A stretch of DNA of 20,800 bases from NCBI GenBank assembly GCA_964517275.1, contig CAZFBL010000003.1, positions 29,698 through 50,497 on the forward strand, written 5' to 3'. A program made the position numbers and the translations under genes. The notes under the pieces were generated by a model. That model was not told where the DNA came from, searched no databases, and saw only the letters and a program-made list of their open reading frames with translations. Shown piece after piece: positions 116 through 20,396 of this stretch; within the stretch, counting starts at the first letter, position 1, and every line of letters starts with the position of its first letter. The DNA comes from an uncultured Candidatus Saccharibacteria bacterium. Lineage in GTDB: Bacteria > Patescibacteriota > Minisyncoccia > Portnoybacterales > UBA2143.

Positions 116-1581
116 ACTTCGGCTTCCAATTCAATGAACAGGCCACTCTGGAAGCCATCTATCGAATCGGCCGTCAAGCCGGCTTTTTGGCTAATATCAA
201 AGAACAGCTAATTGCCTTAGCCGGCGGCTATCGACTGACCCCGGTTTATCAACTAGACCAAGAAAAATTCCGAATCAAAACAGCCAAGCTCTTTAAAGAT
301 ATTGAAAGGCCGGCTCAAAACGCCAGCCTGGTTTTTAATCAAGAAACGGATAGTTTTTCTCTTGAACACTCGACCGAAGGAACGGCCATCAAGCGCAACC
401 AATTGCTGGCTGATTTAACAAGCAGAATTGAATCACTTTCCAGCCAGCCGATTGAATTACAATTGGCCCTTGACTACCCGACAGTTAAAAATAACGAAGT
501 TGAAGAAGCCCGTCAGAAAGCCGAATCAATTTTAGCCAACCAACCCTACCAATTGACCTTCGGAGAAAGCTACTGGACAATTGACAAGGAAACTATCATT
601 GACTGGTTAAAGTTTGAACCGGTTTCGGCCGAAGACAAAGAAGAAAATCCCAACAATCAGATTCTGGGCTGTTCTCTAAATGAGGAAAAAATTAAAACTC
701 ATTTAGCCGAGATAGCCAAGACGATTGACCGGCCGACAACCAATGCCCGTTTGGAAACCGAAGGCAAGCGAGCAATTGTTTTTTCAGCCGGCCAGGCCGG
801 TTTCCGGGTTTATCAACAGGAAACTATCCAAGAATTAACCAATAATATCTTGGGCCAGCCGCCAATTAAACAGACTAAGCTTATTGCCGATGTCGCTCCG
901 CCCAGAATAAGTTTGAGCCAAACCAATAACTTGGGTATCAATATTTTAATCGGCCAGGGCAACTCTAATTTCGGCGGTTCGCCCAACAATCGAATTCACA
1001 ACATCAAAACAGGGACAGCTAAATTTAATGGCTTAATCCTGAATCCGGGCGAGGAATTTTCTTTCAACGAGCTTTTAGGCGGCAGCGGGCCGGCCGAGGG
1101 CTTCCTGCCGGAACTGGTTATCAAAAAAGGCAAAACCGTCCCTGAGTACGGCGGCGGCCTCTGTCAGGTCTCGACCACCCTTTTCCGAGCGGCCGTTAAC
1201 AGCGGCCTGGAAATCACCGAGCGCCGCCCCCACGCTTTTCCGGTTGTCTATTACTCTCCTCAAGGCTTCGACGCGACCGTCTACAACCCTTCTCCCGACC
1301 TCCGTTTTATCAACAACAGGCCGGGCCATCTTCTAATCGAGGGAGTCGTTCAGGGCAGTCAATTAATCTTCAACTTTTATGGAACTGACGACGGCCGCCA
1401 GGTTCAAATTAAAGGGCCCTACATTTTAGAAAAAAAAGAAGACGGTTCAATGAAAGCCGTCTTATACCAAGAGGTTTACCAAAAAGATGAATTAGTTCAT
1501 CAGCAGACTTTTTACTCAAATTATGATTCGCCCGATTTGTATCCGATCGGCGGGAGCGAAGAAGACGAAGAAGAAGATTAA
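1..1581 (+). CDS. VanW-domain protein, 5'-partial; the reading frame is open from base 1
   Basis: Frame 1 has no stop from nt 1 through the listed ORF (187..1581), so the gene enters from upstream. The C-terminal half carries a VanW-like signature: YGGGLCQVSTTLFRAA ... ERRPHAFPVVYYSPQGFDATV. Stop TAA at 1579-1581 is followed by an intrinsic terminator. Confidence 0.7.
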   Translation, partial: QDGPASSQDGPASSQDGPASSNQDGTASSNQDGTVNLINFGFQFNEQATLEAIYRIGRQAGFLANIKEQLIALAGGYRLTPVYQLDQEKFRIKTAKLFKDIERPAQNASLVFNQETDSFSLEHSTEGTAIKRNQLLADLTSRIESLSSQPIELQLALDYPTVKNNEVEEARQKAESILANQPYQLTFGESYWTIDKETIIDWLKFEPVSAEDKEENPNNQILGCSLNEEKIKTHLAEIAKTIDRPTTNARLETEGKRAIVFSAGQAGFRVYQQETIQELTNNILGQPPIKQTKLIADVAPPRISLSQTNNLGINILIGQGNSNFGGSPNNRIHNIKTGTAKFNGLILNPGEEFSFNELLGGSGPAEGFLPELVIKKGKTVPEYGGGLCQVSTTLFRAAVNSGLEITERRPHAFPVVYYSPQGFDATVYNPSPDLRFINNRPGHLLIEGVVQGSQLIFNFYGTDDGRQVQIKGPYILEKKEDGSMKAVLYQEVYQKDELVHQQTFYSNYDSPDLYPIGGSEEDEEED

Positions 1582-1585
1582 GAAA

Positions 1586-1609
1586 AGTCCGCCCACAGCG
1601 GACTTTTTT
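1586..1609 (+). terminator. Rho-independent terminator
   Basis: 7-bp stem agtccgc/gcggact with loop ccaca, followed by a T6 run, 5 nt after the stop codon. Confidence 0.8.
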
Positions 1610-1622
1610 AGTCGAAGTTTAG

Positions 1623-1706
1623 TGCGGACGGTGGGAGTTGAACCCACATGAGATTGCTCTCACCAGGTCCTAAACCTGGCGCGTCTGCCAATTCCGCCAC
1701 GTCCGC
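1623..1706 (-). tRNA. tRNA-Leu (anticodon TAG), 84 nt, long variable arm
   Basis: Reverse complement folds as GCGGACG-TG-GCGG...ACGC-G-CCAGG-TTTAGGA-CCTGG-(15-nt variable arm)-GTGGG-TTCAACT-CCCAC-CGTCCGC-A. The anticodon loop is TTTAGGA, giving anticodon TAG. CCA is not encoded. Confidence 0.88.
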
Positions 1707-1749
1707 TTTTAGTCTATTTTAATCCCCTTTCAGTCAAAAATCAATACTC

Positions 1750-1778
1750 TTGACATTTAAGATTTTGTTGTGTATAAT
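1750..1778 (+). promoter_or_regulatory. Consensus sigma70-type promoter (TTGACA, 17-bp spacer, TATAAT)
   Basis: TTGACA at 1750-1755 and TATAAT at 1773-1778 with an exact 17-bp spacer and TG immediately upstream of the -10. Strong SD AAAGGAGGA at 1846-1854 sits 6 nt before the ATG at 1861. Confidence 0.75.
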
Positions 1779-1860
1779 AGTGAGTATTAATTTAGGTAAG
1801 GGAGGGACTTAAATTATTTAGGTTCCTTTAAAAATCAAACTCTGAAAAGGAGGATAATCA

Positions 1861-2940
1861 ATGAAATCATTTTTATTGGGAGTTTATATCGGTTTAGGTA
1901 TAGTTGGCTTAGCCGCAGCTGTTTTTGGCCTAATTATCTTAATTCACTTCCTGGCCAAAAATAATATTTTCATCACTTCTGTCCAGGAAGGAATGGCTAA
2001 AGCAATCCAGAAATTCGGTAGATTCCATCGGGCAGTAATGACCTATGAAGGATACGGGTTCGACACCGAATGGACAGTCCGCCCTAAAGAAAAAACAGAT
2101 GAAGACGGCTATATCCTCGGTGAAAACGGAAAGATTGCTAAGAGCGAACAAGAAACATCTCTTAAACTTCGGTTAGAACCATGGTTTCGATTTGGCGGTC
2201 TCCGCTGGGTAGGCATTCCTCTAATTCATTCTGTCTATAGGTATAAATTCAGATGGGCTTCGTTTGAACAAGGAGAGGAGCAAGGCACCCTTGTTCAGAA
2301 AATTATCTCTCACGAGGAAAAAATAGATTATGTTCTGGTTCAAGACGACATCTATTACAGTTTTGTTACGGAAGCAGAAACCGAAGGGATGGTTCCAGTA
2401 AATGTGAATTTACTCTTGACCATTAGGATAGTTAATCCTTATAAAGCTCTTTTCAGAGTTCAGAACTGGCTGGAAGCAACTCAAAACTTGCTTAAACCTG
2501 CTCTGAGAAAGTACATCTCTGGAAAATCATTTGAAGATTTAATCAGGAAAAAAGAAGAAACAGAAAGAGAAGCAGATGAGTTTCTAAAAGAATCTGAGGT
2601 AGATAAATACCTGGAACGAGATTATGGTGTTCGTCTGAAGAAAGTTGGTATGGTGCTGATTAACCCAGCTGGCGAACGAGGTCAAACTTTTGTCGCGGCG
2701 GCAACTAAAGAATGGGAAGCCGAAAAGGAGAAAAGCCGAATCAAGATAAGTGCCGAAGCCGAAGTAGAAAGAATAAGAAGGATTTACGATCAAATCAAGA
2801 GTTATGGCGAAGAAGGACTTTTCATCCGAGCCACCGAGGCCATTGAGGAAACTGGCAAGGGGCCAAGCAATTTGGTTCTTTTTCCTCTCGGCTCGGCTAA
2901 ATCTATGATTGAAGGATGGCTGGGAAGAAAAAATCAGTAA
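1861..2940 (+). CDS. SPFH/band-7 (stomatin/prohibitin-like) membrane protein with an insertion
   Basis: N-terminal TM helix. VPVNVNLLLTIRIVNPYKALFRVQNWLEATQNLLKPALRKYISGKSFEDLI matches the SPFH core (compare stomatin VPVRVNAVVYFRVVDPVKAV...). C-terminal charged coiled coil (EKEKSRIKISAEAEVERIRRI). Strong RBS. About 100 extra residues are inserted after the first SPFH strand. Confidence 0.7.
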   Translation: MKSFLLGVYIGLGIVGLAAAVFGLIILIHFLAKNNIFITSVQEGMAKAIQKFGRFHRAVMTYEGYGFDTEWTVRPKEKTDEDGYILGENGKIAKSEQETSLKLRLEPWFRFGGLRWVGIPLIHSVYRYKFRWASFEQGEEQGTLVQKIISHEEKIDYVLVQDDIYYSFVTEAETEGMVPVNVNLLLTIRIVNPYKALFRVQNWLEATQNLLKPALRKYISGKSFEDLIRKKEETEREADEFLKESEVDKYLERDYGVRLKKVGMVLINPAGERGQTFVAAATKEWEAEKEKSRIKISAEAEVERIRRIYDQIKSYGEEGLFIRATEAIEETGKGPSNLVLFPLGSAKSMIEGWLGRKNQ

Positions 2941-2968
2941 AGAGCAAGAAAAAAAGGAAGGCAAGGAA

Positions 2969-4240
2969 ATGAGCATAAAAGGCAAGAAAAAAGCAGGACA
3001 AGGAATGAGCGTAATAATATATATCGTTCTCGGTATAATAGTGGCAATAGCCATGGCCAGCCTTGTTTCAATGAGCATGTTATATGCCATTTTCGGTATA
3101 ATAGTGGTAATGTTAGTAGCTGCTCTGGTTTCTCTGATAGCCGCCTGGCTGATAACTCGGACGTCAAAAGAAACAACAAATGAGATAAGCAGAGCAGAAA
3201 GAACCAGAAACATAAAGGATTTCTGGTGGAATTACTTCAAGCCCCTGGCGGCTGTGCCAATTGGCTGGTACATACTCCATATTGTTGTCTGGCTTATGTT
3301 TCCAGAAACCGCCAAAGCCATTTGGGGATACCATCTTCAAACTTTACTGGCCGTCGAAATAATTGTCTTTGTTCTTAATTCTCTCCTCAATAAACAAGTT
3401 GCTTTCCGAGACAGGAATACCAGAAAATTGATGGAGGGGGTTTACATAACATTTCTAGTCATGGGTTTATTGATAATACTGACAGGCGTCTTCGCTGGCG
3501 AATGCAAAGCAACCATTGATATGTATTTCTACTCGCGGATAAAACTCTCGGAAGTTGCTAAAATGGAGGTAAAGATAGAAATTGGCCAGACCGAATGGAA
3601 AAGCAAACCGTCATTCAAAGAGCTAAATCAATTGAGCAAAGAGATTAGCAAACGACCCTTCAGCGACACGGAAATGGAAAATGTCAGAGGTCAAGCTGAA
3701 GAGGCAAGAGACATAATTTCCACTATGCTGGAATCACATCTGGCAAACCTCCAACCGAGCAGTGACGGACAAAATGGTCAGCCAGCTGGTCCTTTTAAGA
3801 CATCGGCCAGTATCATTCAAAATCCGGACGGCTCTTGGGATATGCCGGTCTTGGCCAATAGATTGGAAATTGATTCCACCCTGGAGGTCAAAGAGGGACA
3901 AGTCGTAATAATTACGGCTAGTGGCCAAGTCAACGGTTGCAAAAGTCAATACGATGCTGCTTATGGCTGGACCGGACCAGAAGGAAGAAAATGGGACTTC
4001 GACCCAAAAAGAAAACGCCCTCTGGGACCGGGCTCTCCATTTATGGCTCTCGGGGCTAAAATCGGCGAGAATGGAAAATGGTTCAAGGTGGGAAAAAAGA
4101 TAAACTTTCGGGCAACCGAGGGAGGAAAGCTCTATTTCACAGTCAACGACGACATCCATGACAGTCAGGGTAGATTCCGACCAGGATGGATAAAGGACAA
4201 CGAGGGACAATATACGGTTAAAATCAAAATTGATTGTTGA
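2969..4240 (+). CDS. Polytopic membrane protein (about 5 TM) with a C-terminal PA-IL/LecA-like lectin domain
   Basis: SD AGGAAGG lies 7 nt before the ATG at 2969. In-frame alternatives are 2909 and 3005. The positively charged N-terminus is followed by 5 hydrophobic helices. The last ~115 aa (GQVVIITASGQVNGC...WTGPEGRKW...MALGAKIGENGKWFKV...LYFTVNDD...DNEGQYTVKI) align with P. aeruginosa LecA (GDVITIVAAGWASYG...WGPQGD...ALVMKIGNSG...ITLIYNDV...NNSGSFSVNI). LecA was recalled from memory and not searched. Confidence 0.6.
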   Translation: MSIKGKKKAGQGMSVIIYIVLGIIVAIAMASLVSMSMLYAIFGIIVVMLVAALVSLIAAWLITRTSKETTNEISRAERTRNIKDFWWNYFKPLAAVPIGWYILHIVVWLMFPETAKAIWGYHLQTLLAVEIIVFVLNSLLNKQVAFRDRNTRKLMEGVYITFLVMGLLIILTGVFAGECKATIDMYFYSRIKLSEVAKMEVKIEIGQTEWKSKPSFKELNQLSKEISKRPFSDTEMENVRGQAEEARDIISTMLESHLANLQPSSDGQNGQPAGPFKTSASIIQNPDGSWDMPVLANRLEIDSTLEVKEGQVVIITASGQVNGCKSQYDAAYGWTGPEGRKWDFDPKRKRPLGPGSPFMALGAKIGENGKWFKVGKKINFRATEGGKLYFTVNDDIHDSQGRFRPGWIKDNEGQYTVKIKIDC

Positions 4241-4258
4241 AAGGAGGGAAATGAACAA

Positions 4259-4296
4259 AGAGGCAGCGAAAATTCGCTTCACTGCCTCTTTTTTGT
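4259..4296 (+). terminator. Rho-independent terminator
   Basis: GC-rich hairpin gaggcag...ctgcctc with an inner gcgaa/ttcgc pairing, followed by a T6 run, 19 nt after the stop. Confidence 0.8.
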
Positions 4297-4322
4297 TAAA
4301 ATAAAAACATAATCATAAAGAT

Positions 4323-6644
4323 ATGTATCGAAACAAAGTCATCTCCGTGGTTATCCCCTGCTATAACGAGGCGAAATCAATTGACCAAGTAATTAAATCT
4401 CTGCCTAAAGAGATAGACGAAATCATTGTTGTAGATAACAATTCAACCGACCAGACAAATAGAGTTGCCCGAACGGCCGGAGCCAAAGTTATTTTTGAAC
4501 CGAAACAAGGATATGGCCATGCTTATAAAGCAGGTTTAGGTAAAGTCAAGGGCGAAATTATCGTCACCTTAGACGGCGATATTCAATATCCCACCGAAGA
4601 AATTACCGACCTAATTAAGTTTTTGATAGATAAAAAGATAGATTTTCTCTCTGCTTCTCGTTTCCCTCTTAACAATCTAAAATCTATTAACAGGACTCGA
4701 CTAATTGGTAATAAAATCCTCACTTGGTTAACTAATTTCTTGTTTAAGACAAAAATTAAAGATTCCCAATCAGGTATGTGGGTTTTCAAGAAAGTAGTTT
4801 TAGACAAACTTTCTCTTGTCAGCAATGGTATGCCCTTTTCTGAGGAAATAAAGATTAGGGCTTTTTTGGAACCGAAACTATGTTTCGCTGAAAAAAAAAT
4901 AAACTACCGTCCAAGAATAGGAGAATCTAAACTATTTCCCCTAAAAGACGGTTTTAAAAACCTCACTTTTTTGTTCAAACTGCGTTGGCAGTCTAGAAAG
5001 AGGAAAAAGGGATTTCTTCTGTCAGCTTCATTTATATTTCTCATCTTCGCCGCTATCTTTTCCTTTATCCAATTTTCATCTCCTAATCTGGCCGGCGTTG
5101 ATGCTTATTATCATATTAAATACGCTTATCTTTATCGGACTTTAGGTATTCAAGAAACACTCAATAACTTCAGCCTAGCCGGAGAATACTCCATTTTGAA
5201 CCAATATCCAAGCGACCTTTCTTTTCTCTATCACGTTATTTTAATCCTCTTTACTTACGGCAATCTAATTACTGGCAGTAAAATAGTCGCTGTTCTTTTG
5301 GCCGCTTTAATTTTTACGGTTTTTTACTGGGTCTTTAAAAAACTCGAGATAAAATACAGCTTTGTCTGGACTGGCCTATTCTTTGTCGCCTCCAGTGCTT
5401 TTATCTTCCGGCTGACCCTCTCACGTCCTCTTCTTTTGTCTATCCTTTTTTCTATTTTGGGCTTCTATTTAATTGCCAAGAAAAAATATGGCTGGCTTTT
5501 TGTTTTGTCTATCCTTTACGCCTTAAGTTATGCTATTTCTCTCCTTATTTTAGTCATGAGTTCTATTTATTTACTGGCCGAGTACATTCAAACTAAAAAA
5601 TTTGACTGGAAACTTCTTTTTTATCCATTTACAGGCATCTTAATCGGTTTGATTATCCGGCCTGATTTTCCCCAAAATTTTTATCTTGTTTTTGCCCAAA
5701 GTTTTTATACCATTTTCTATAAACTTGAAGGAATTCAGTTAGGTATCGGCGCTGAAATGTCCTTAATCAGCACTCCTTTGAGAACTAATTTCATTCTGCT
5801 TTTTCTTTTTAGTTCTACTTTAGCTTTTGTTTTAGCGGACTTAATTAATAAAGGGTTCAAAAAGAATAATTACTCAACCGTTCATCTTTACGCTCTCTTT
5901 TTGGCTATTTTCTTTTGTCTTTTGACTTTTGTTAGTCAAAGATTTTTTGAATACTGGACTCCTTTTACTTTGTTTTTTGCCGCTTTTAGTTTTGAATATA
6001 TCTCTCAAGACGGATACTGGCGAGATTTATTCAGCCAATTCTTCAAATTAATAGGTTTTTCTTTAAATCGATTAAAACTTCTCTTTTTAGTTTGTCTCTG
6101 CTTAATCATCATCTCCTATGGTTATATTAATGCCTCAAAGGCGGTTGAATCGATGGAGGAAACCATTCTTACCTCTGACCGTTATCAAGAAGTCAGTCAG
6201 TGGCTGGAAGACAACACGCCAGCTCAATCAATCGTCTTTAACGCTTCTTGGGATAATTTCCCCCAATTATTTTTCCATAATCATCACAATTACTATATTA
6301 TCGGTAAAGACCCTACCTTTATGTATCTCTATGATAAAGAACTTTTTTGGCTCTGGATGAATGTGACCCGTCAGGGTATTATTTGCGCCCAGCCTGAAAA
6401 AAACTGCTCTGACTCGGTCTTCACCGAAAAATTATCCCAACGGGCTCAAGAAATACATCGGATTATCGAAAACAGATTCCAAAGCGAATATATTTTTATA
6501 GACAGTCAATTAGAATTTGACCAATCTCAAAGACATCAAGTATTTAAAAAAATATTAGAGAACTCTTCTCTGTTTAAAAAAGTTTACCAAGACAAAGAAT
6601 ATCCGGAAGTGATGATTTTCCAATTAGCGGATAGTACTATTTGA
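4323..6644 (+). CDS. Family-2 glycosyltransferase (polyprenyl-phosphate sugar synthase-like) fused to a large polytopic membrane domain
   Basis: The N-terminus has GT2 signatures (VVIPCYNE, VDNNSTDQT, DGDIQYP), like DPM1/GtrB/ArnC-type enzymes. About 10 predicted TM helices follow (aa ~240-600), then a ~170-aa soluble C-terminal region. No SD is visible; a cataat hexamer sits only ~10 nt upstream of the ATG. Confidence 0.7.
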   Translation: MYRNKVISVVIPCYNEAKSIDQVIKSLPKEIDEIIVVDNNSTDQTNRVARTAGAKVIFEPKQGYGHAYKAGLGKVKGEIIVTLDGDIQYPTEEITDLIKFLIDKKIDFLSASRFPLNNLKSINRTRLIGNKILTWLTNFLFKTKIKDSQSGMWVFKKVVLDKLSLVSNGMPFSEEIKIRAFLEPKLCFAEKKINYRPRIGESKLFPLKDGFKNLTFLFKLRWQSRKRKKGFLLSASFIFLIFAAIFSFIQFSSPNLAGVDAYYHIKYAYLYRTLGIQETLNNFSLAGEYSILNQYPSDLSFLYHVILILFTYGNLITGSKIVAVLLAALIFTVFYWVFKKLEIKYSFVWTGLFFVASSAFIFRLTLSRPLLLSILFSILGFYLIAKKKYGWLFVLSILYALSYAISLLILVMSSIYLLAEYIQTKKFDWKLLFYPFTGILIGLIIRPDFPQNFYLVFAQSFYTIFYKLEGIQLGIGAEMSLISTPLRTNFILLFLFSSTLAFVLADLINKGFKKNNYSTVHLYALFLAIFFCLLTFVSQRFFEYWTPFTLFFAAFSFEYISQDGYWRDLFSQFFKLIGFSLNRLKLLFLVCLCLIIISYGYINASKAVESMEETILTSDRYQEVSQWLEDNTPAQSIVFNASWDNFPQLFFHNHHNYYIIGKDPTFMYLYDKELFWLWMNVTRQGIICAQPEKNCSDSVFTEKLSQRAQEIHRIIENRFQSEYIFIDSQLEFDQSQRHQVFKKILENSSLFKKVYQDKEYPEVMIFQLADSTI

Positions 6645-6691
6645 ATATAAGGACTCGTCCTGTTTAAACTATAAATTCAAACCGCAAACTA

Positions 6692-6727
6692 AAAACCAGG
6701 CAAATCAAAACGCTTGTCTGGTTTTTA
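6692..6727. terminator. Bidirectional intrinsic terminator between convergent genes
   Basis: Stem aaaaccag/ctggtttt with an 18-nt loop, flanked by A-run and T-run, in the gap between the + gene ending at 6644 and the - gene ending at 6790. Confidence 0.55.
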
Positions 6728-6789
6728 GTACATATATGCAATAAAACTATCCAATTCCTTTAACTCAGCTTTTCGGCTAACTAAATCTA

Positions 6790-7140
6790 CTAGAGCAGGC
6801 CGATGACAACATTGACTATAGCCAGAGCAGCTAAAGCAATTAACAAACCAACTATACCGCTAATCAACAACTTTCTGGCTTTAGCTTGTTGGTCTTCATT
6901 ACCACCGGCCGTTGCCCACATAATTCCGGCAATAACGATAACCAAGGCAGCAACTAAGGCGGCAATGCCGGCTATCCAGTTAACCACGCTTTCTATAATT
7001 TCCCGAACACTCTTATTAGAGACATTACTCATATTGGTCGGACCTGTGATAGCCGCTGAGACAAAATTAGAACCAACCAAAAAGACAAAAGCGGTTAGTA
7101 AAAACAAACTAACCAATGATTTCTTCTTAATAATTTTCAC
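6790..7140 (-). CDS. Small secreted two-helix membrane protein, TrbC/VirB2-pilin-like (paralog 1 of 3)
   Basis: GTG start with SD-like GGAAAGGGGGTG 8 nt upstream. Signal peptide ends at FVSA|AI. The mature part has two hydrophobic helices around a GGNED turn (WIAGIAALVAALVIVIAG...GGNEDQQAKARKLL...). This layout is typical of T4SS TrbC/VirB2 pilins. Confidence 0.5.
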   Translation of the reverse strand: MKIIKKKSLVSLFLLTAFVFLVGSNFVSAAITGPTNMSNVSNKSVREIIESVVNWIAGIAALVAALVIVIAGIMWATAGGNEDQQAKARKLLISGIVGLLIALAALAIVNVVIGLL

Positions 7141-7174: not shown

Positions 7175-7537
7175 TTATGGTGTAATACCCAAAATATCGA
7201 ATAAGGCCTGTAATAATCCCCAAGAGGCTAGAATAATAGCCAGACCGATTAAAGACCATTGTATAGTCTGACGAGCCTTCTTAACTTTTTCTTCGCTCCC
7301 TCCGGAAACCATATATTGAATACCACCAATAACAACCATTAAAACAGCTACCGTTGAAGCAATGCCAGCCACCCAATCAGCGATCCGGAGGAAAAGCTCA
7401 GTAAAAGTATTGGCATTAAGAGGATTATTTATCACCATATTGGCAGCTTTAATACTAATCAGAGGCAAAATGATCACTAAAAAGCTAAAAGTCAAAACTG
7501 ATAATAAAGAAAACTTTTTGAGGATGTTTCTAAACAT
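7175..7537 (-). CDS. Small secreted two-helix membrane protein, TrbC/VirB2-pilin-like (paralog 2 of 3)
   Basis: Signal peptide (...SIKA|AN), then WVAGIASTVAVLMVVIGG...GGSEEKVKKARQTIQW..., clearly homologous to the neighbouring two genes. Starts 9 nt after the paralog-3 stop. No SD is visible. Confidence 0.5.
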   Translation of the reverse strand: MFRNILKKFSLLSVLTFSFLVIILPLISIKAANMVINNPLNANTFTELFLRIADWVAGIASTVAVLMVVIGGIQYMVSGGSEEKVKKARQTIQWSLIGLAIILASWGLLQALFDILGITP

Positions 7538-7546
7538 AAATTTTTA

Positions 7547-7957
7547 TTACGGACAAGGAGGAAATACGTTCCAAGCGCCGCTGAAAGCTCCGGTGGCAAT
7601 AGATTTTAATAAACTGTCGATTATTAACCAACTGGTAAAAATGATGACTAGGCCGATAACCGCATTGGTAAAAATATTTTTGGCCAAACTGACTCTTTCC
7701 TCGCTGCCGCCGGCCACAAGAAAGATAACCCCGGCCGCCACAAATAGGAGAACAGCCGCCGGAATAGCCAGATTAAAACTGATAAAATTGATAATATTAC
7801 TGGCCAAGTGCCAAAGATGACAAAGACTACAGTCCGGCTGACCTGTCCGGCCACAAGGGACTATCGGTTCGGTAACAAAACCGGCATAGGCCAAATTAGC
7901 GGCCAGTAAGCCAATTAAGATAAAAGAACCGATTAGAATTTTCTGAAAACTATCCAT
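7547..7957 (-). CDS. Small secreted two-helix membrane protein, TrbC/VirB2-pilin-like, with a Cys-rich insert (paralog 3 of 3)
   Basis: Signal peptide, then the Cys-containing segment PCGRTGQPDCSLCHLWHL, then the shared core AAGVIFLVAGGSEERVSLAKNIF...GLVIIFTSW, ending ...FPPCP. Confidence 0.5.
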   Translation of the reverse strand: MDSFQKILIGSFILIGLLAANLAYAGFVTEPIVPCGRTGQPDCSLCHLWHLASNIINFISFNLAIPAAVLLFVAAGVIFLVAGGSEERVSLAKNIFTNAVIGLVIIFTSWLIIDSLLKSIATGAFSGAWNVFPPCP

Positions 7958-17209: not shown

Positions 17210-17256
17210 AAAAAGATTGACCGAATGGCAAAGATTGACTAAAATAGAATTGTTTT

Positions 17257-17329
17257 GGGCGTGTAGCTCAGGGGTTAGAGCATTGCTCTTATAAAGCAAG
17301 GGTCGATGGTTCGAATCCATCCACGCCCA
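17257..17329 (+). tRNA. tRNA-Ile, anticodon TAT (UAU)
   Basis: Perfect cloverleaf: GGGCGTG/CACGCCC acceptor, GCTC/GAGC D-stem, TTGCT/AGCAA anticodon stem, loop CTTATAA, GATGG-TTCGAAT-CCATC T-arm. The body resembles bacterial tRNA-Ile. The 3' end is followed by CCC, not CCA. Confidence 0.85.
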
Positions 17330-17333
17330 CCCC

Positions 17334-19591: not shown

Positions 19592-19663
19592 GGGCCGGTA
19601 GTTCAGTGGTAGAATATCTCTTTTGCACAGAGAAGGTCGTGGGTCCGATTCCCACCCGGTCCA
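19592..19663 (+). tRNA. tRNA-Ala, anticodon TGC
   Basis: GGGCCGG/CCGGTCC acceptor with the diagnostic G3:U70 wobble pair, anticodon loop TTTGCAC, GTGGG-TCCGATT-CCCAC T-arm. Confidence 0.88.
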
Positions 19664-19664
19664 C

Positions 19665-20396
19665 ATGTCCCTTAAATCAAATCTATCTATCAAGTTAAAG
19701 ATTGTTTATGAAGACAAAGATGTTTTTGCGCTCGAAAAGCCGGCCGGTTTAATGGTTCATCCGATTAGGCCAGAACAAAATGACACCTTAGTTAACGGAT
19801 TAATCGCCTACTATCCGGAAATTAAAAATGTTGGCGACCCTTCGACAAGCTCAGGGCAAATTAATCTGCGGCCAGGCATTGTCCATCGCTTAGACAAAGA
19901 TACTTCCGGCTTAATGATTGTAGCCAAGAATAATCCAGCTTTTGAATATTTAAAAAAGCAGTTCGCCGACCGGAAAGTTGTTAAAAAATATTTAGCTTTG
20001 GTTCACGGCCGGGTCAAAGACAAAAAAGGAACCATTACCAAAGCGATTAGTTTGTCTAAAAAAGACCGCCGAAAGAGAAGCGCCTTATTGGACGATAAAG
20101 CCAAAAAGGCCTGGACCGAATACAGGGTCATAAAAAGATTTAAAGATTATACTTTACTGAAAGTCCGAATTAAGACCGGCCGGACTCATCAGATTAGAGT
20201 TCATTTAGCCTCCATTGGTCATCCAGTGGCCGGCGACCAGCAATACAAATTCAAAAGGCAGCCGGAATTGGCTGGTTTGAAAAGACAATTTCTTCATGCC
20301 GCTTACTTGAAATTAAAATTACCTAATGGTAAGCTAATTGAGCTTAAATCAAAACTACCGGAAGATTTAGAAAGAGTTTTAAGAATTTATGAATAA
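19665..20396 (+). CDS. RluA-family pseudouridine synthase (no S4 domain)
   Basis: Catalytic motif [16 protein letters not shown] and [20 protein letters not shown]. The first ATG is in the same frame as the track ORF and lies 2 nt after the tRNA-Ala 3' end. Confidence 0.8.

Follow-up and report, generated by a model that had tools for sequence, protein, structure and literature searches.

A membrane-tethered LecA/PA-IL-like domain encoded beside a stomatin-type gene in a Saccharibacteria-labelled lineage: a candidate surface carbohydrate-binding module

The stretch of DNA considered here (the window, 20,800 nucleotides of contig CAZFBL010000003.1 from assembly GCA_964517275.1, assigned to an uncultured Candidatus Saccharibacteria bacterium) carries on its forward strand an open reading frame (ORF) at 2969..4240, the target of this study, whose 423-aa product combines a polytopic membrane anchor, a helical stalk, a linker and a C-terminal domain resembling the lectin LecA (PA-IL) of Pseudomonas aeruginosa. 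The ORF, which starts with the ATG at 2969 and ends with the stop codon at 4238-4240, is judged real; the Shine-Dalgarno-like stretch AAGGAAGG lies immediately 5' of the ATG, and the translation is a 100% match to an NCBI-derived 423-aa protein (P0001). The membrane anchor (2969..3499, residues 1-177) begins with MSIKGKKK, a K-rich tail at the N-terminus, and goes on with five hydrophobic helices. It is continued by a region that is poorly conserved among homologues (3500..3829, residues 178-287), which consists of a predicted helical stalk at residues 178-260 and, at residues 261-287, a flexible linker with many Gly, Pro, Gln and Ser residues, and then by the PA-IL/LecA-like jelly-roll beta-sandwich domain (3830..4237, residues 288-423). 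A first-pass annotation, made from the sequence alone, had placed a LecA-like domain of ~115 aa at 3850-4240; this interval does lie inside the C-terminal domain, but the fold actually begins at residue 288-290, near nucleotide ~3830, and with its loop inserts the domain is rather ~136 aa long. Two overlapping ORFs, at 3734-4282 (-) and 3921-4103 (+), have no support and are treated as shadow ORFs, and no second copy of the lectin-like domain was found within the window.

The homology of the C-terminal ~136 residues to the LecA/PA-IL lectins is genuine but distant, as profile comparisons with the solved members show. When hhalign was used to compare the profile of the ten-member family of the target with the aligned sequences of LecA, PllA and a third PA-IL lectin chain, all of solved structure, the match had a probability of 95.2 and an E-value of 2.8e-8 over 110 columns, with 31% identity. 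In the reciprocal direction, a hidden Markov model (HMM) built from the solved lectins alone matched 51 intermediate sequences directly (e.g., P0022 at 64 bits) and, after one iteration, the target protein itself at 72 bits. An exhaustive HMMER search of 1.84 billion representatives gave 768 matches at E<=1e-3 and 132 at E<=1e-10, and the Pfam PA-IL family (PF07828) was recognised on 21 of 72 sampled top matches outside the close family, the best at 3.9e-24. In a database of 5.8 billion sequences, PF07828 proteins are likewise retrieved with the domain profile, at E 9e-4 to 6e-3, one of these proteins bearing the NCBI name 'LecA/PA-IL family lectin', and the joint alignment of the close family with its PF07828 relatives shows a convincing block-by-block agreement. 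The motif blocks listed in the first-pass annotation, GQVVIITASG, W-T-GPEG, ALGAKIGENG and YFTVNDD ... DNEGQYTVKI, are all present and aligned to LecA blocks in the profile-profile comparison. The opening strand motif among them has the spacing G-x-V-x-I-x-x-A-x-G, one position longer than had been written, and the terminal D-N, taken at first for a LecA block, agrees with PllA and EclA, LecA having N-N there.

The relationship is revealed only by profiles and structure. The search with the Pfam PA-IL HMM that had been proposed as a check gives no match with the single sequence, a phmmer search of the Protein Data Bank (PDB) with the target sequence found no match, and BLASTP against LecA (with a LecA sequence identical to 1L7L chain A) returned a non-significant match of 18 residues only, at E 0.059. 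A profile search of PDB sequences reached PllA only at E 0.61; the designed beta-trefoil proteins that also appeared there were matched through a short repeated motif and were rejected as spurious. Close homologues of the target are few, ten in a first search and four more by profile, and none of them carries a precomputed Pfam domain. Their C-terminal 150 residues are 53-69% identical, as against 31-45% over the whole proteins, and they share the invariant hallmarks of an NGC motif, the basic loop GRKW...RKRPLG, FRPxW and DNEG. The target does not score above the threshold of the curated PA-IL model, and no curated model recognises the close family (~14 sequences) above its threshold. The protein can best be regarded as part of a divergent PA-IL sub-branch, with a display architecture of its own.

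The predicted fold is in agreement with this homology. An AlphaFold2 model of the domain, computed from an 18-sequence alignment, has a mean predicted local distance difference test score (pLDDT) of 92.6 and a predicted template modelling score (pTM) of 0.88, and it is a jelly-roll beta-sandwich superposable on LecA. The ten best Foldseek matches in the PDB are all LecA, PllA or EclA's N-terminal domain (EclA-N), with E-values of 2.4e-7 to 5.5e-6, target-normalised template modelling (TM) scores of up to 0.83, the match at E 2.4e-7 having 0.81, and deviations of 2.5-2.6 Å; the next fold, that of the cupins, follows at E 1.5e-3 with a query-normalised TM score of 0.35 (range 0.35-0.48). The LecA beta-sandwich predicted from the letters alone is thus upheld by two methods. 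No match to the domain was found in the BFVD viral fold library at E<=0.001, and therefore no link to phage receptor-binding proteins was seen.

A Ca2+ site is very probably present in the domain. The ligand numbering of LecA used here is said to go back to Cioci et al. 2003, and His50 and Gln53 of LecA reportedly hold the O6 of galactose. According to hhalign and the family alignment, the three side-chain Ca2+ ligands of LecA, Asp100, Asn107 and Asn108, correspond to D394, D410 and N411 in 18 of 18 sequences. D394, within N393-D394-D395 (4145..4153, + strand), aligns by hhalign to Asp100, a ligand of both Ca2+ and galactose, and is invariant in the close family and its PF07828 relatives, and D410-N411 (4196..4201, + strand) aligns to Asn107-Asn108 of LecA and to Asp121-Asn122 of EclA-N. 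None of the 18 aligned sequences, PF07828 members included, deviates at N393, D410, N411 or G413. When 242 domains from the wider family are compared, the columns of the Ca2+ site again rank with the best conserved: the N393 column holds N in 229 of 240 sequences, the D394 column D in 200 and E in 22 of 239, the D410 column D in 51 and N in 24 of 86, the N411 column N in 78 of 86 and the G413 column G in 85 of 85. In the EclA-N crystal structure, Ca2+ is held by the same D...D-N side chains, there Asp114, Asp121 and Asn122, together with two backbone carbonyls (PMC11875179). The backbone-carbonyl ligands of LecA, Tyr36 and Thr104, align to G323 and W407 by sequence alignment only, both residues adjoining loop inserts.

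The surroundings of this site have been remodelled. The basic loop RKWDFDPKRKR (R340-R350, 3986..4018, + strand) takes the place of the specificity loop of LecA that contains His50 and Gln53, and the close family shows no variation at its R340, R348 and R350. An insert of nine residues, I396-R404, separates the two halves of the Ca2+ site and is followed by the invariant W407, F403 being invariant as well. Conservation within the protein is highest in the loops around the site, the aromatic residues W334 and W407 among them, and the invariant W334 corresponds to W42 of LecA (PDB 1L7L, 3ZYB, 4CP9), which lies near the sugar site. Beyond the shared motif blocks and Ca2+ ligands, the two proteins differ in that LecA is a soluble homotetramer of 121 aa with an isoelectric point (pI) of 5.04, whereas the domain of the target (pI 9.06) is the head of a 423-aa protein with five transmembrane helices, has ~5, ~9 and 9 residues inserted in three of its loops and is missed by the Pfam PA-IL model. 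PllA and EclA have, as the target has, a D-N dipeptide at the Ca2+ site, and EclA also uses the domain as one module of a larger protein, with a remodelled and wider pocket being possible (PMC11875179). Both are soluble cytoplasmic or secreted lectins of gamma-proteobacteria, with seven residues between the halves of the Ca2+ site where the target has 16.

Hydropathy and charge place the domain on the far side of the membrane. Five hydrophobic helices, at residues ~14-34, 37-62, 92-111, 121-139 and 157-177, are indicated by Kyte-Doolittle peaks of 1.7-3.0, and the numbers of K and R residues in successive segments (4, 0, 7, 1, 5 and 4) give 16 in the predicted cytoplasmic segments versus 5 outside, the expected pattern of a protein with its N-terminus in and its C-terminus out. 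The earlier claims of five helices behind a positively charged N-terminus and of an outward-facing domain are thereby supported, and from the charge bias we infer that the PA-IL-like domain is very likely located outside the cell. Three homologues with biases of 10 versus 4, 11 versus 5 and 16 versus 5 all have the C-terminus outside by the same reckoning, as do homologues with five, four, three or two transmembrane segments. In the shortest relatives, which are 173-210 aa long, only one hydrophobic segment is present, at the N-terminus; it resembles a Sec signal or signal anchor, and in three of four such single-segment variants the net charge of the flanks is more positive on the N-terminal side, as in Sec signals and signal anchors (N-terminus in). 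A full-length AlphaFold model, used for secondary structure only, has membrane helices at residues 3-31, 36-66, 73-110, 112-140 and 150-175 with low confidence, and beyond the anchor DSSP assigns helices at 177-211, 214-228 and 233-260 followed by coil at 261-282 and then by the beta domain, the stalk and linker having a pLDDT of 32-64.

Anchor and head are independently exchangeable, since the same head is found on various anchors and the same anchor with an alternative head. Across the relatives, the head is carried on one, two to three, four to five or seven hydrophobic segments, and the distant relatives P0048 and P0057 also have long polytopic N-terminal regions. Conversely, four metagenomic proteins (P0042, P0056, P0058 and P0088; locus L017) combine the five-helix anchor and helical stalk of the subclade of the target with an unrelated C-terminal domain of ~85 residues, and no Pfam family was matched by any of the four proteins. 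P0042, the contig of which is too short to show a gene neighbourhood, shares 53% identity with P0003 over residues 1-265, and the swap of heads in these proteins falls exactly at the linker. In the wider family, the domain is paired with PKD, fn3, OmpA, M23 peptidase, SUEL lectin and CBM15 modules, which fits an extracytoplasmic module. The multi-domain PF07828 proteins named 'LecA/PA-IL family lectin', known from metagenomes and diverse bacteria, are retrieved by the profile of the target family, and many of them are secreted or anchored and bear PKD, fn3, OmpA or M23 modules; the target family differs from them in falling below the curated thresholds, in having invariant motifs of its own and in occupying a fixed site by a stomatin gene. 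The architecture had been described at first as unusual for a lectin; with relatives varying both anchors and modules, it is less exceptional than was claimed.

The gene is the second of a pair. The first (1861..2940, + strand) encodes a stomatin-type SPFH/Band_7 protein of 359 aa with one N-terminal hydrophobic segment (Pfam Band_7, 2e-10), whose best solved relative is the Pyrococcus horikoshii stomatin 3bk6 (5.9e-9), and the gap between the two genes in the window is 28 nt. Upstream of the SPFH gene stands a promoter-like site, TTGACA-17-TATAAT (1750..1778, + strand), a pattern match only but with 12/12 positions and the sole 12/12 site within 1500-6900; downstream of the target, 17 nt past the stop codon, an intrinsic-terminator-like hairpin is followed by TTTTTTGTT (4257..4296, + strand), its folding free energy being -19.3 kcal/mol (z -3.67) and none of 200 shuffled sequences folding as well. 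Judging from these signals, the SPFH gene and the target gene are a two-gene unit running from promoter to terminator. In six of eight related loci, the lectin-domain gene is directly preceded by a Band_7 gene, the two being 2 to 18 nt apart or overlapping by 20 nt; in the other two loci there is no SPFH gene or other small genes stand in its place, and the lectin-domain gene is still present. Beyond the terminator, the constant downstream neighbour (4323..6644, + strand) fuses a glycosyltransferase family 2 (GT2) domain (Pfam Glycos_transf_2, 1.7e-25) to a polytopic membrane domain of ~550 aa, with counterparts at L014 2706-4361 and L001 7301-8950. The GT2 part is polyprenyl-phosphate sugar transferase-like, with sub-threshold matches to AglJ-like and dolichyl-phosphate hexose transferase-like NCBIfam models, and the membrane part, for which no Pfam family was matched, is found downstream in all eight related loci, standalone or fused, the fusion to GT2 occurring in three. 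This suggests that the fusion protein is an uncharacterised GT-C-like glycosyltransferase that uses a lipid-linked sugar.

The related loci share one gene order, namely PrsW, HSP20, VanW, SPFH, the lectin-domain gene, GT2/550-aa membrane protein, type IV secretion system (T4SS)-type pilins, solute-binding protein, methyltransferase and GyrA, and the close family sits at one fixed chromosomal position adjoining the stomatin gene. As all loci are syntenic, the adjacency to SPFH is suggestive but not independent evidence. Five of six labelled related loci come from metagenome-assembled genomes (MAGs) named 'Candidatus Saccharibacteria' and one from 'Candidatus Portnoybacteria', labels that bear out the small-genome, possibly episymbiotic lineage guessed at before the source of the DNA was given. 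No homologues of the close family were found outside environmental MAGs.

On this evidence, the target is probably a carbohydrate-binding module of the PA-IL (LecA) superfamily that depends on Ca2+, is displayed at the cell surface and is held to the cytoplasmic membrane of a bacterium from a Saccharibacteria-labelled lineage. In the mechanism that we propose, five transmembrane helices with the N-terminus in and the C-terminus out would fix the protein in the membrane, and the helical stalk of ~80 residues and the flexible linker of ~25 residues would push the ~136-residue jelly-roll domain outward. Ca2+ would be held by the side chains of D394, D410 and N411 and by backbone carbonyls near G323 and W407 and, by analogy with LecA, PllA and EclA, would ligate two vicinal hydroxyls of a sugar, with the Arg/Lys-rich loop R340-R350 and the insert I396-R404 flanking the site. 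Judged from the behaviour of the family, sugar binding by the domain is likely. The gene would be co-transcribed with that of the stomatin-type SPFH scaffold, and it may be speculated that stomatin clusters the anchors and so provides the multivalency that LecA gets by forming tetramers. PllA is likewise a tetramer, and EclA is a dimer.

Several observations weigh against this reading. The Pfam PA-IL model (PF07828) gives no hmmscan match even at E<=10, whether to the whole protein or to residues 295-423, and an hmmscan of the target against NCBIfam found no match either. The full-length model is poor, with a pLDDT of 56.6 from a 10-sequence alignment. The topology comes from a simple calculation of hydropathy and charge; the single-segment homologue P0011 has the opposite charge bias, and a count of K and R only places the C-terminus inside for P0010 and the single-segment forms, a result that we regard as artefactual, acidic residues having been left out of account and a loop of >100 residues included. 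The family is confined to one syntenic lineage, and its gene neighbourhood is not independent evidence. The alignments of the binding-site loops rest on the sequence profile, not on a superposition of coordinates. Within them, the galactose contacts of LecA, His50 and Gln53, are not conserved, L352 and S356 standing there in a loop aligned by hhalign with low confidence, and EclA-N, which has the same fold and the same Ca2+ site, has no known carbohydrate ligand (PMC11875179). A check of the ligand positions, as the first-pass annotation had advised, therefore has a divided outcome, with the Ca2+ side-chain ligands conserved and the two galactose contacts not. Because these contacts are missing, the domain should be called 'LecA-like' and not 'galactophilic', sugar binding is not guaranteed, and galactose specificity should not be assumed from the alignment. 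With the specificity loops remodelled by the replacement of His50 and Gln53, the basic loop and the insert, the ligand is probably not simple galactose, and it may be an anionic or otherwise distinct glycan.

The loss of His50 and Gln53, the remodelling of the site by the nine-residue insert and the basic loop, and the precedent of EclA-N, in which the Ca2+ site is retained and no carbohydrate ligand has been found (PMC11875179), could be taken further, to a PA-IL fold that has lost sugar binding altogether and serves as a Ca2+-stabilised structural or protein-binding beta-sandwich. We consider this very improbable, since in the PA-IL family the main sugar contacts are made by Ca2+ itself, the ligands of which are invariant here, while the loops of the site, with the aromatic W334 and W407, are the most conserved ones, as is typical of a ligand pocket, and the wider relatives co-occur with other carbohydrate-binding modules. 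The genomic context has suggested a different role, that of a partner of stomatin in the manner of the NfeD/STOPP proteins, in which the beta-rich C-terminal domain would contact the SPFH oligomer, perhaps in the cytoplasm, with no role as a lectin. Prokaryotic SPFH genes are reported to be typically paired with a gene for a membrane partner bearing a C-terminal beta domain (PMC2636767, PMC4208085), and PH1510 with PH1511 offers a parallel in that a membrane protein with a beta-rich C-terminal domain forms a two-gene unit with a stomatin-type SPFH gene, just as the target shares one promoter-to-terminator unit with the Band_7 gene that directly precedes it in six of the eight loci. The target, however, gives no NfeD (PF01957) signal even at E<=10, and its fold is the PA-IL jelly roll, not the OB barrel, for which reasons membership of the NfeD/STOPP family was rejected. 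The order of the genes also differs, the stomatin gene coming first; the charge bias places the domain outside, and a cluster of K and R behind the transmembrane segment of the SPFH protein suggests that its SPFH domain is cytoplasmic; the triad of Ca2+ ligands is strongly conserved; and in the two loci where the SPFH gene is missing or replaced the lectin-domain gene has been retained. A partnership of this kind is accordingly the least probable of the readings that we have considered.

The source of the glycan is a separate matter. With the same fold and the same location, the ligand could be a self-made glycan or glycoprotein of the cell's own envelope, and the protein could serve to arrange or fasten the layers of that envelope instead of recognising a host; a candidate ligand is whatever the adjacent GT2 and 550-aa membrane protein makes. 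The gene lies within a conserved envelope locus, comprising VanW with a peptidoglycan-binding domain, SPFH, GT2/550-aa, T4SS-type pilins and a solute-binding protein. In 8/8 loci the 550-aa membrane protein is found downstream, three times fused to a polyprenyl-phosphate-sugar transferase-like GT2, and the residues of the binding loops are almost invariant across the family, which is easier to reconcile with an unchanging ligand of the cell itself than with a host ligand that varies. Yet in the window a terminator stands between the target and the GT2 gene, the synteny of all loci means that adjacency may be mere inheritance, and the homologues with the same anchor and an unrelated head suggest an exchangeable, outward-looking function. 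Envelope self-recognition is an unlikely reading. As regards recognition of another cell, experiments with cultured Saccharibacteria have pointed to cell-wall glycans of the host: attachment depends on glycans, and the lectins that mediate it are still to be found (PMC11623550). This makes a host cell-wall glycan an attractive target, and host-glycan recognition is a plausible role for the predicted surface module. The lectin-like minor pilins PilX1 and PilX2 of Saccharibacteria TM7x (PMC11623550) are comparable as candidate modules for glycan recognition at the surface, but have L-type-like and PLL propeller-like folds and are carried by type IV pili instead of a membrane stalk. A search of the literature turned up no paper that connects PA-IL domains with Saccharibacteria. 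In a bolder and rather improbable version of the proposal, the SPFH oligomer would corral the polytopic anchors, so that weak monomeric PA-IL heads on stalks would form a multivalent pad for a host cell-wall glycan, possibly an anionic one, and the head would be an exchangeable cassette for host range; such a cassette would explain both the anchors with unrelated heads and the heads on different anchors.

The recognition and holding of hosts by ultrasmall epibiotic bacteria, the Saccharibacteria and other candidate phyla radiation (CPR) members, are largely unexplained, and the locus offers a concrete candidate in the form of a small, confidently modelled lectin-fold domain with Ca2+-site residues and a predicted display at the surface. 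It also links a lectin-fold domain to a stomatin operon, and it leads to a sizeable branch of the PA-IL superfamily that is missed by current family models: it counts 768 representatives when clustered at 50%, and Pfam recognises just ~30% of the top matches that were sampled. The close family is known solely from environmental MAGs of one lineage, and nothing in the finding is surprising in kind.

The remaining features of the window can be briefly described. The constant upstream member of the syntenic envelope locus is a VanW-like protein with PG_binding_4 peptidoglycan-binding repeats (187-1581, + strand), and between its gene and that of the SPFH protein are a minus-strand tRNA-Leu (1622-1706) and a hairpin (1583-1607). 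In one relative (L001 2039-4830; L002 223-2073), a block with an IS1595-family transposase, Bro-N and HNH-like genes is inserted between VanW and SPFH and leaves the SPFH-lectin pair intact. Farther downstream, two tandem small genes (7175-7537 and 7547-7957, both on the minus strand) match the Pfam T4SS_pilin family PF18895 at 7e-14 and 4e-9, the first also weakly matching TrbC, and two to four genes of this type are present at the same position in all related loci. A tRNA-Ile with the anticodon TAT (17256-17332, + strand) adjoins a tRNA-Val(GAC); most bacteria decode AUA via a lysidine-modified CAU tRNA, and a tRNA-Ile with a UAU anticodon is uncommon. Finally, a tRNA-Ala(TGC) at 19592-19664 (+ strand) overlaps the first 42 nt of an ORF with a TTG start for an RluA-type pseudouridine synthase (19623-20396, + strand), and the true start of this gene is probably further downstream.

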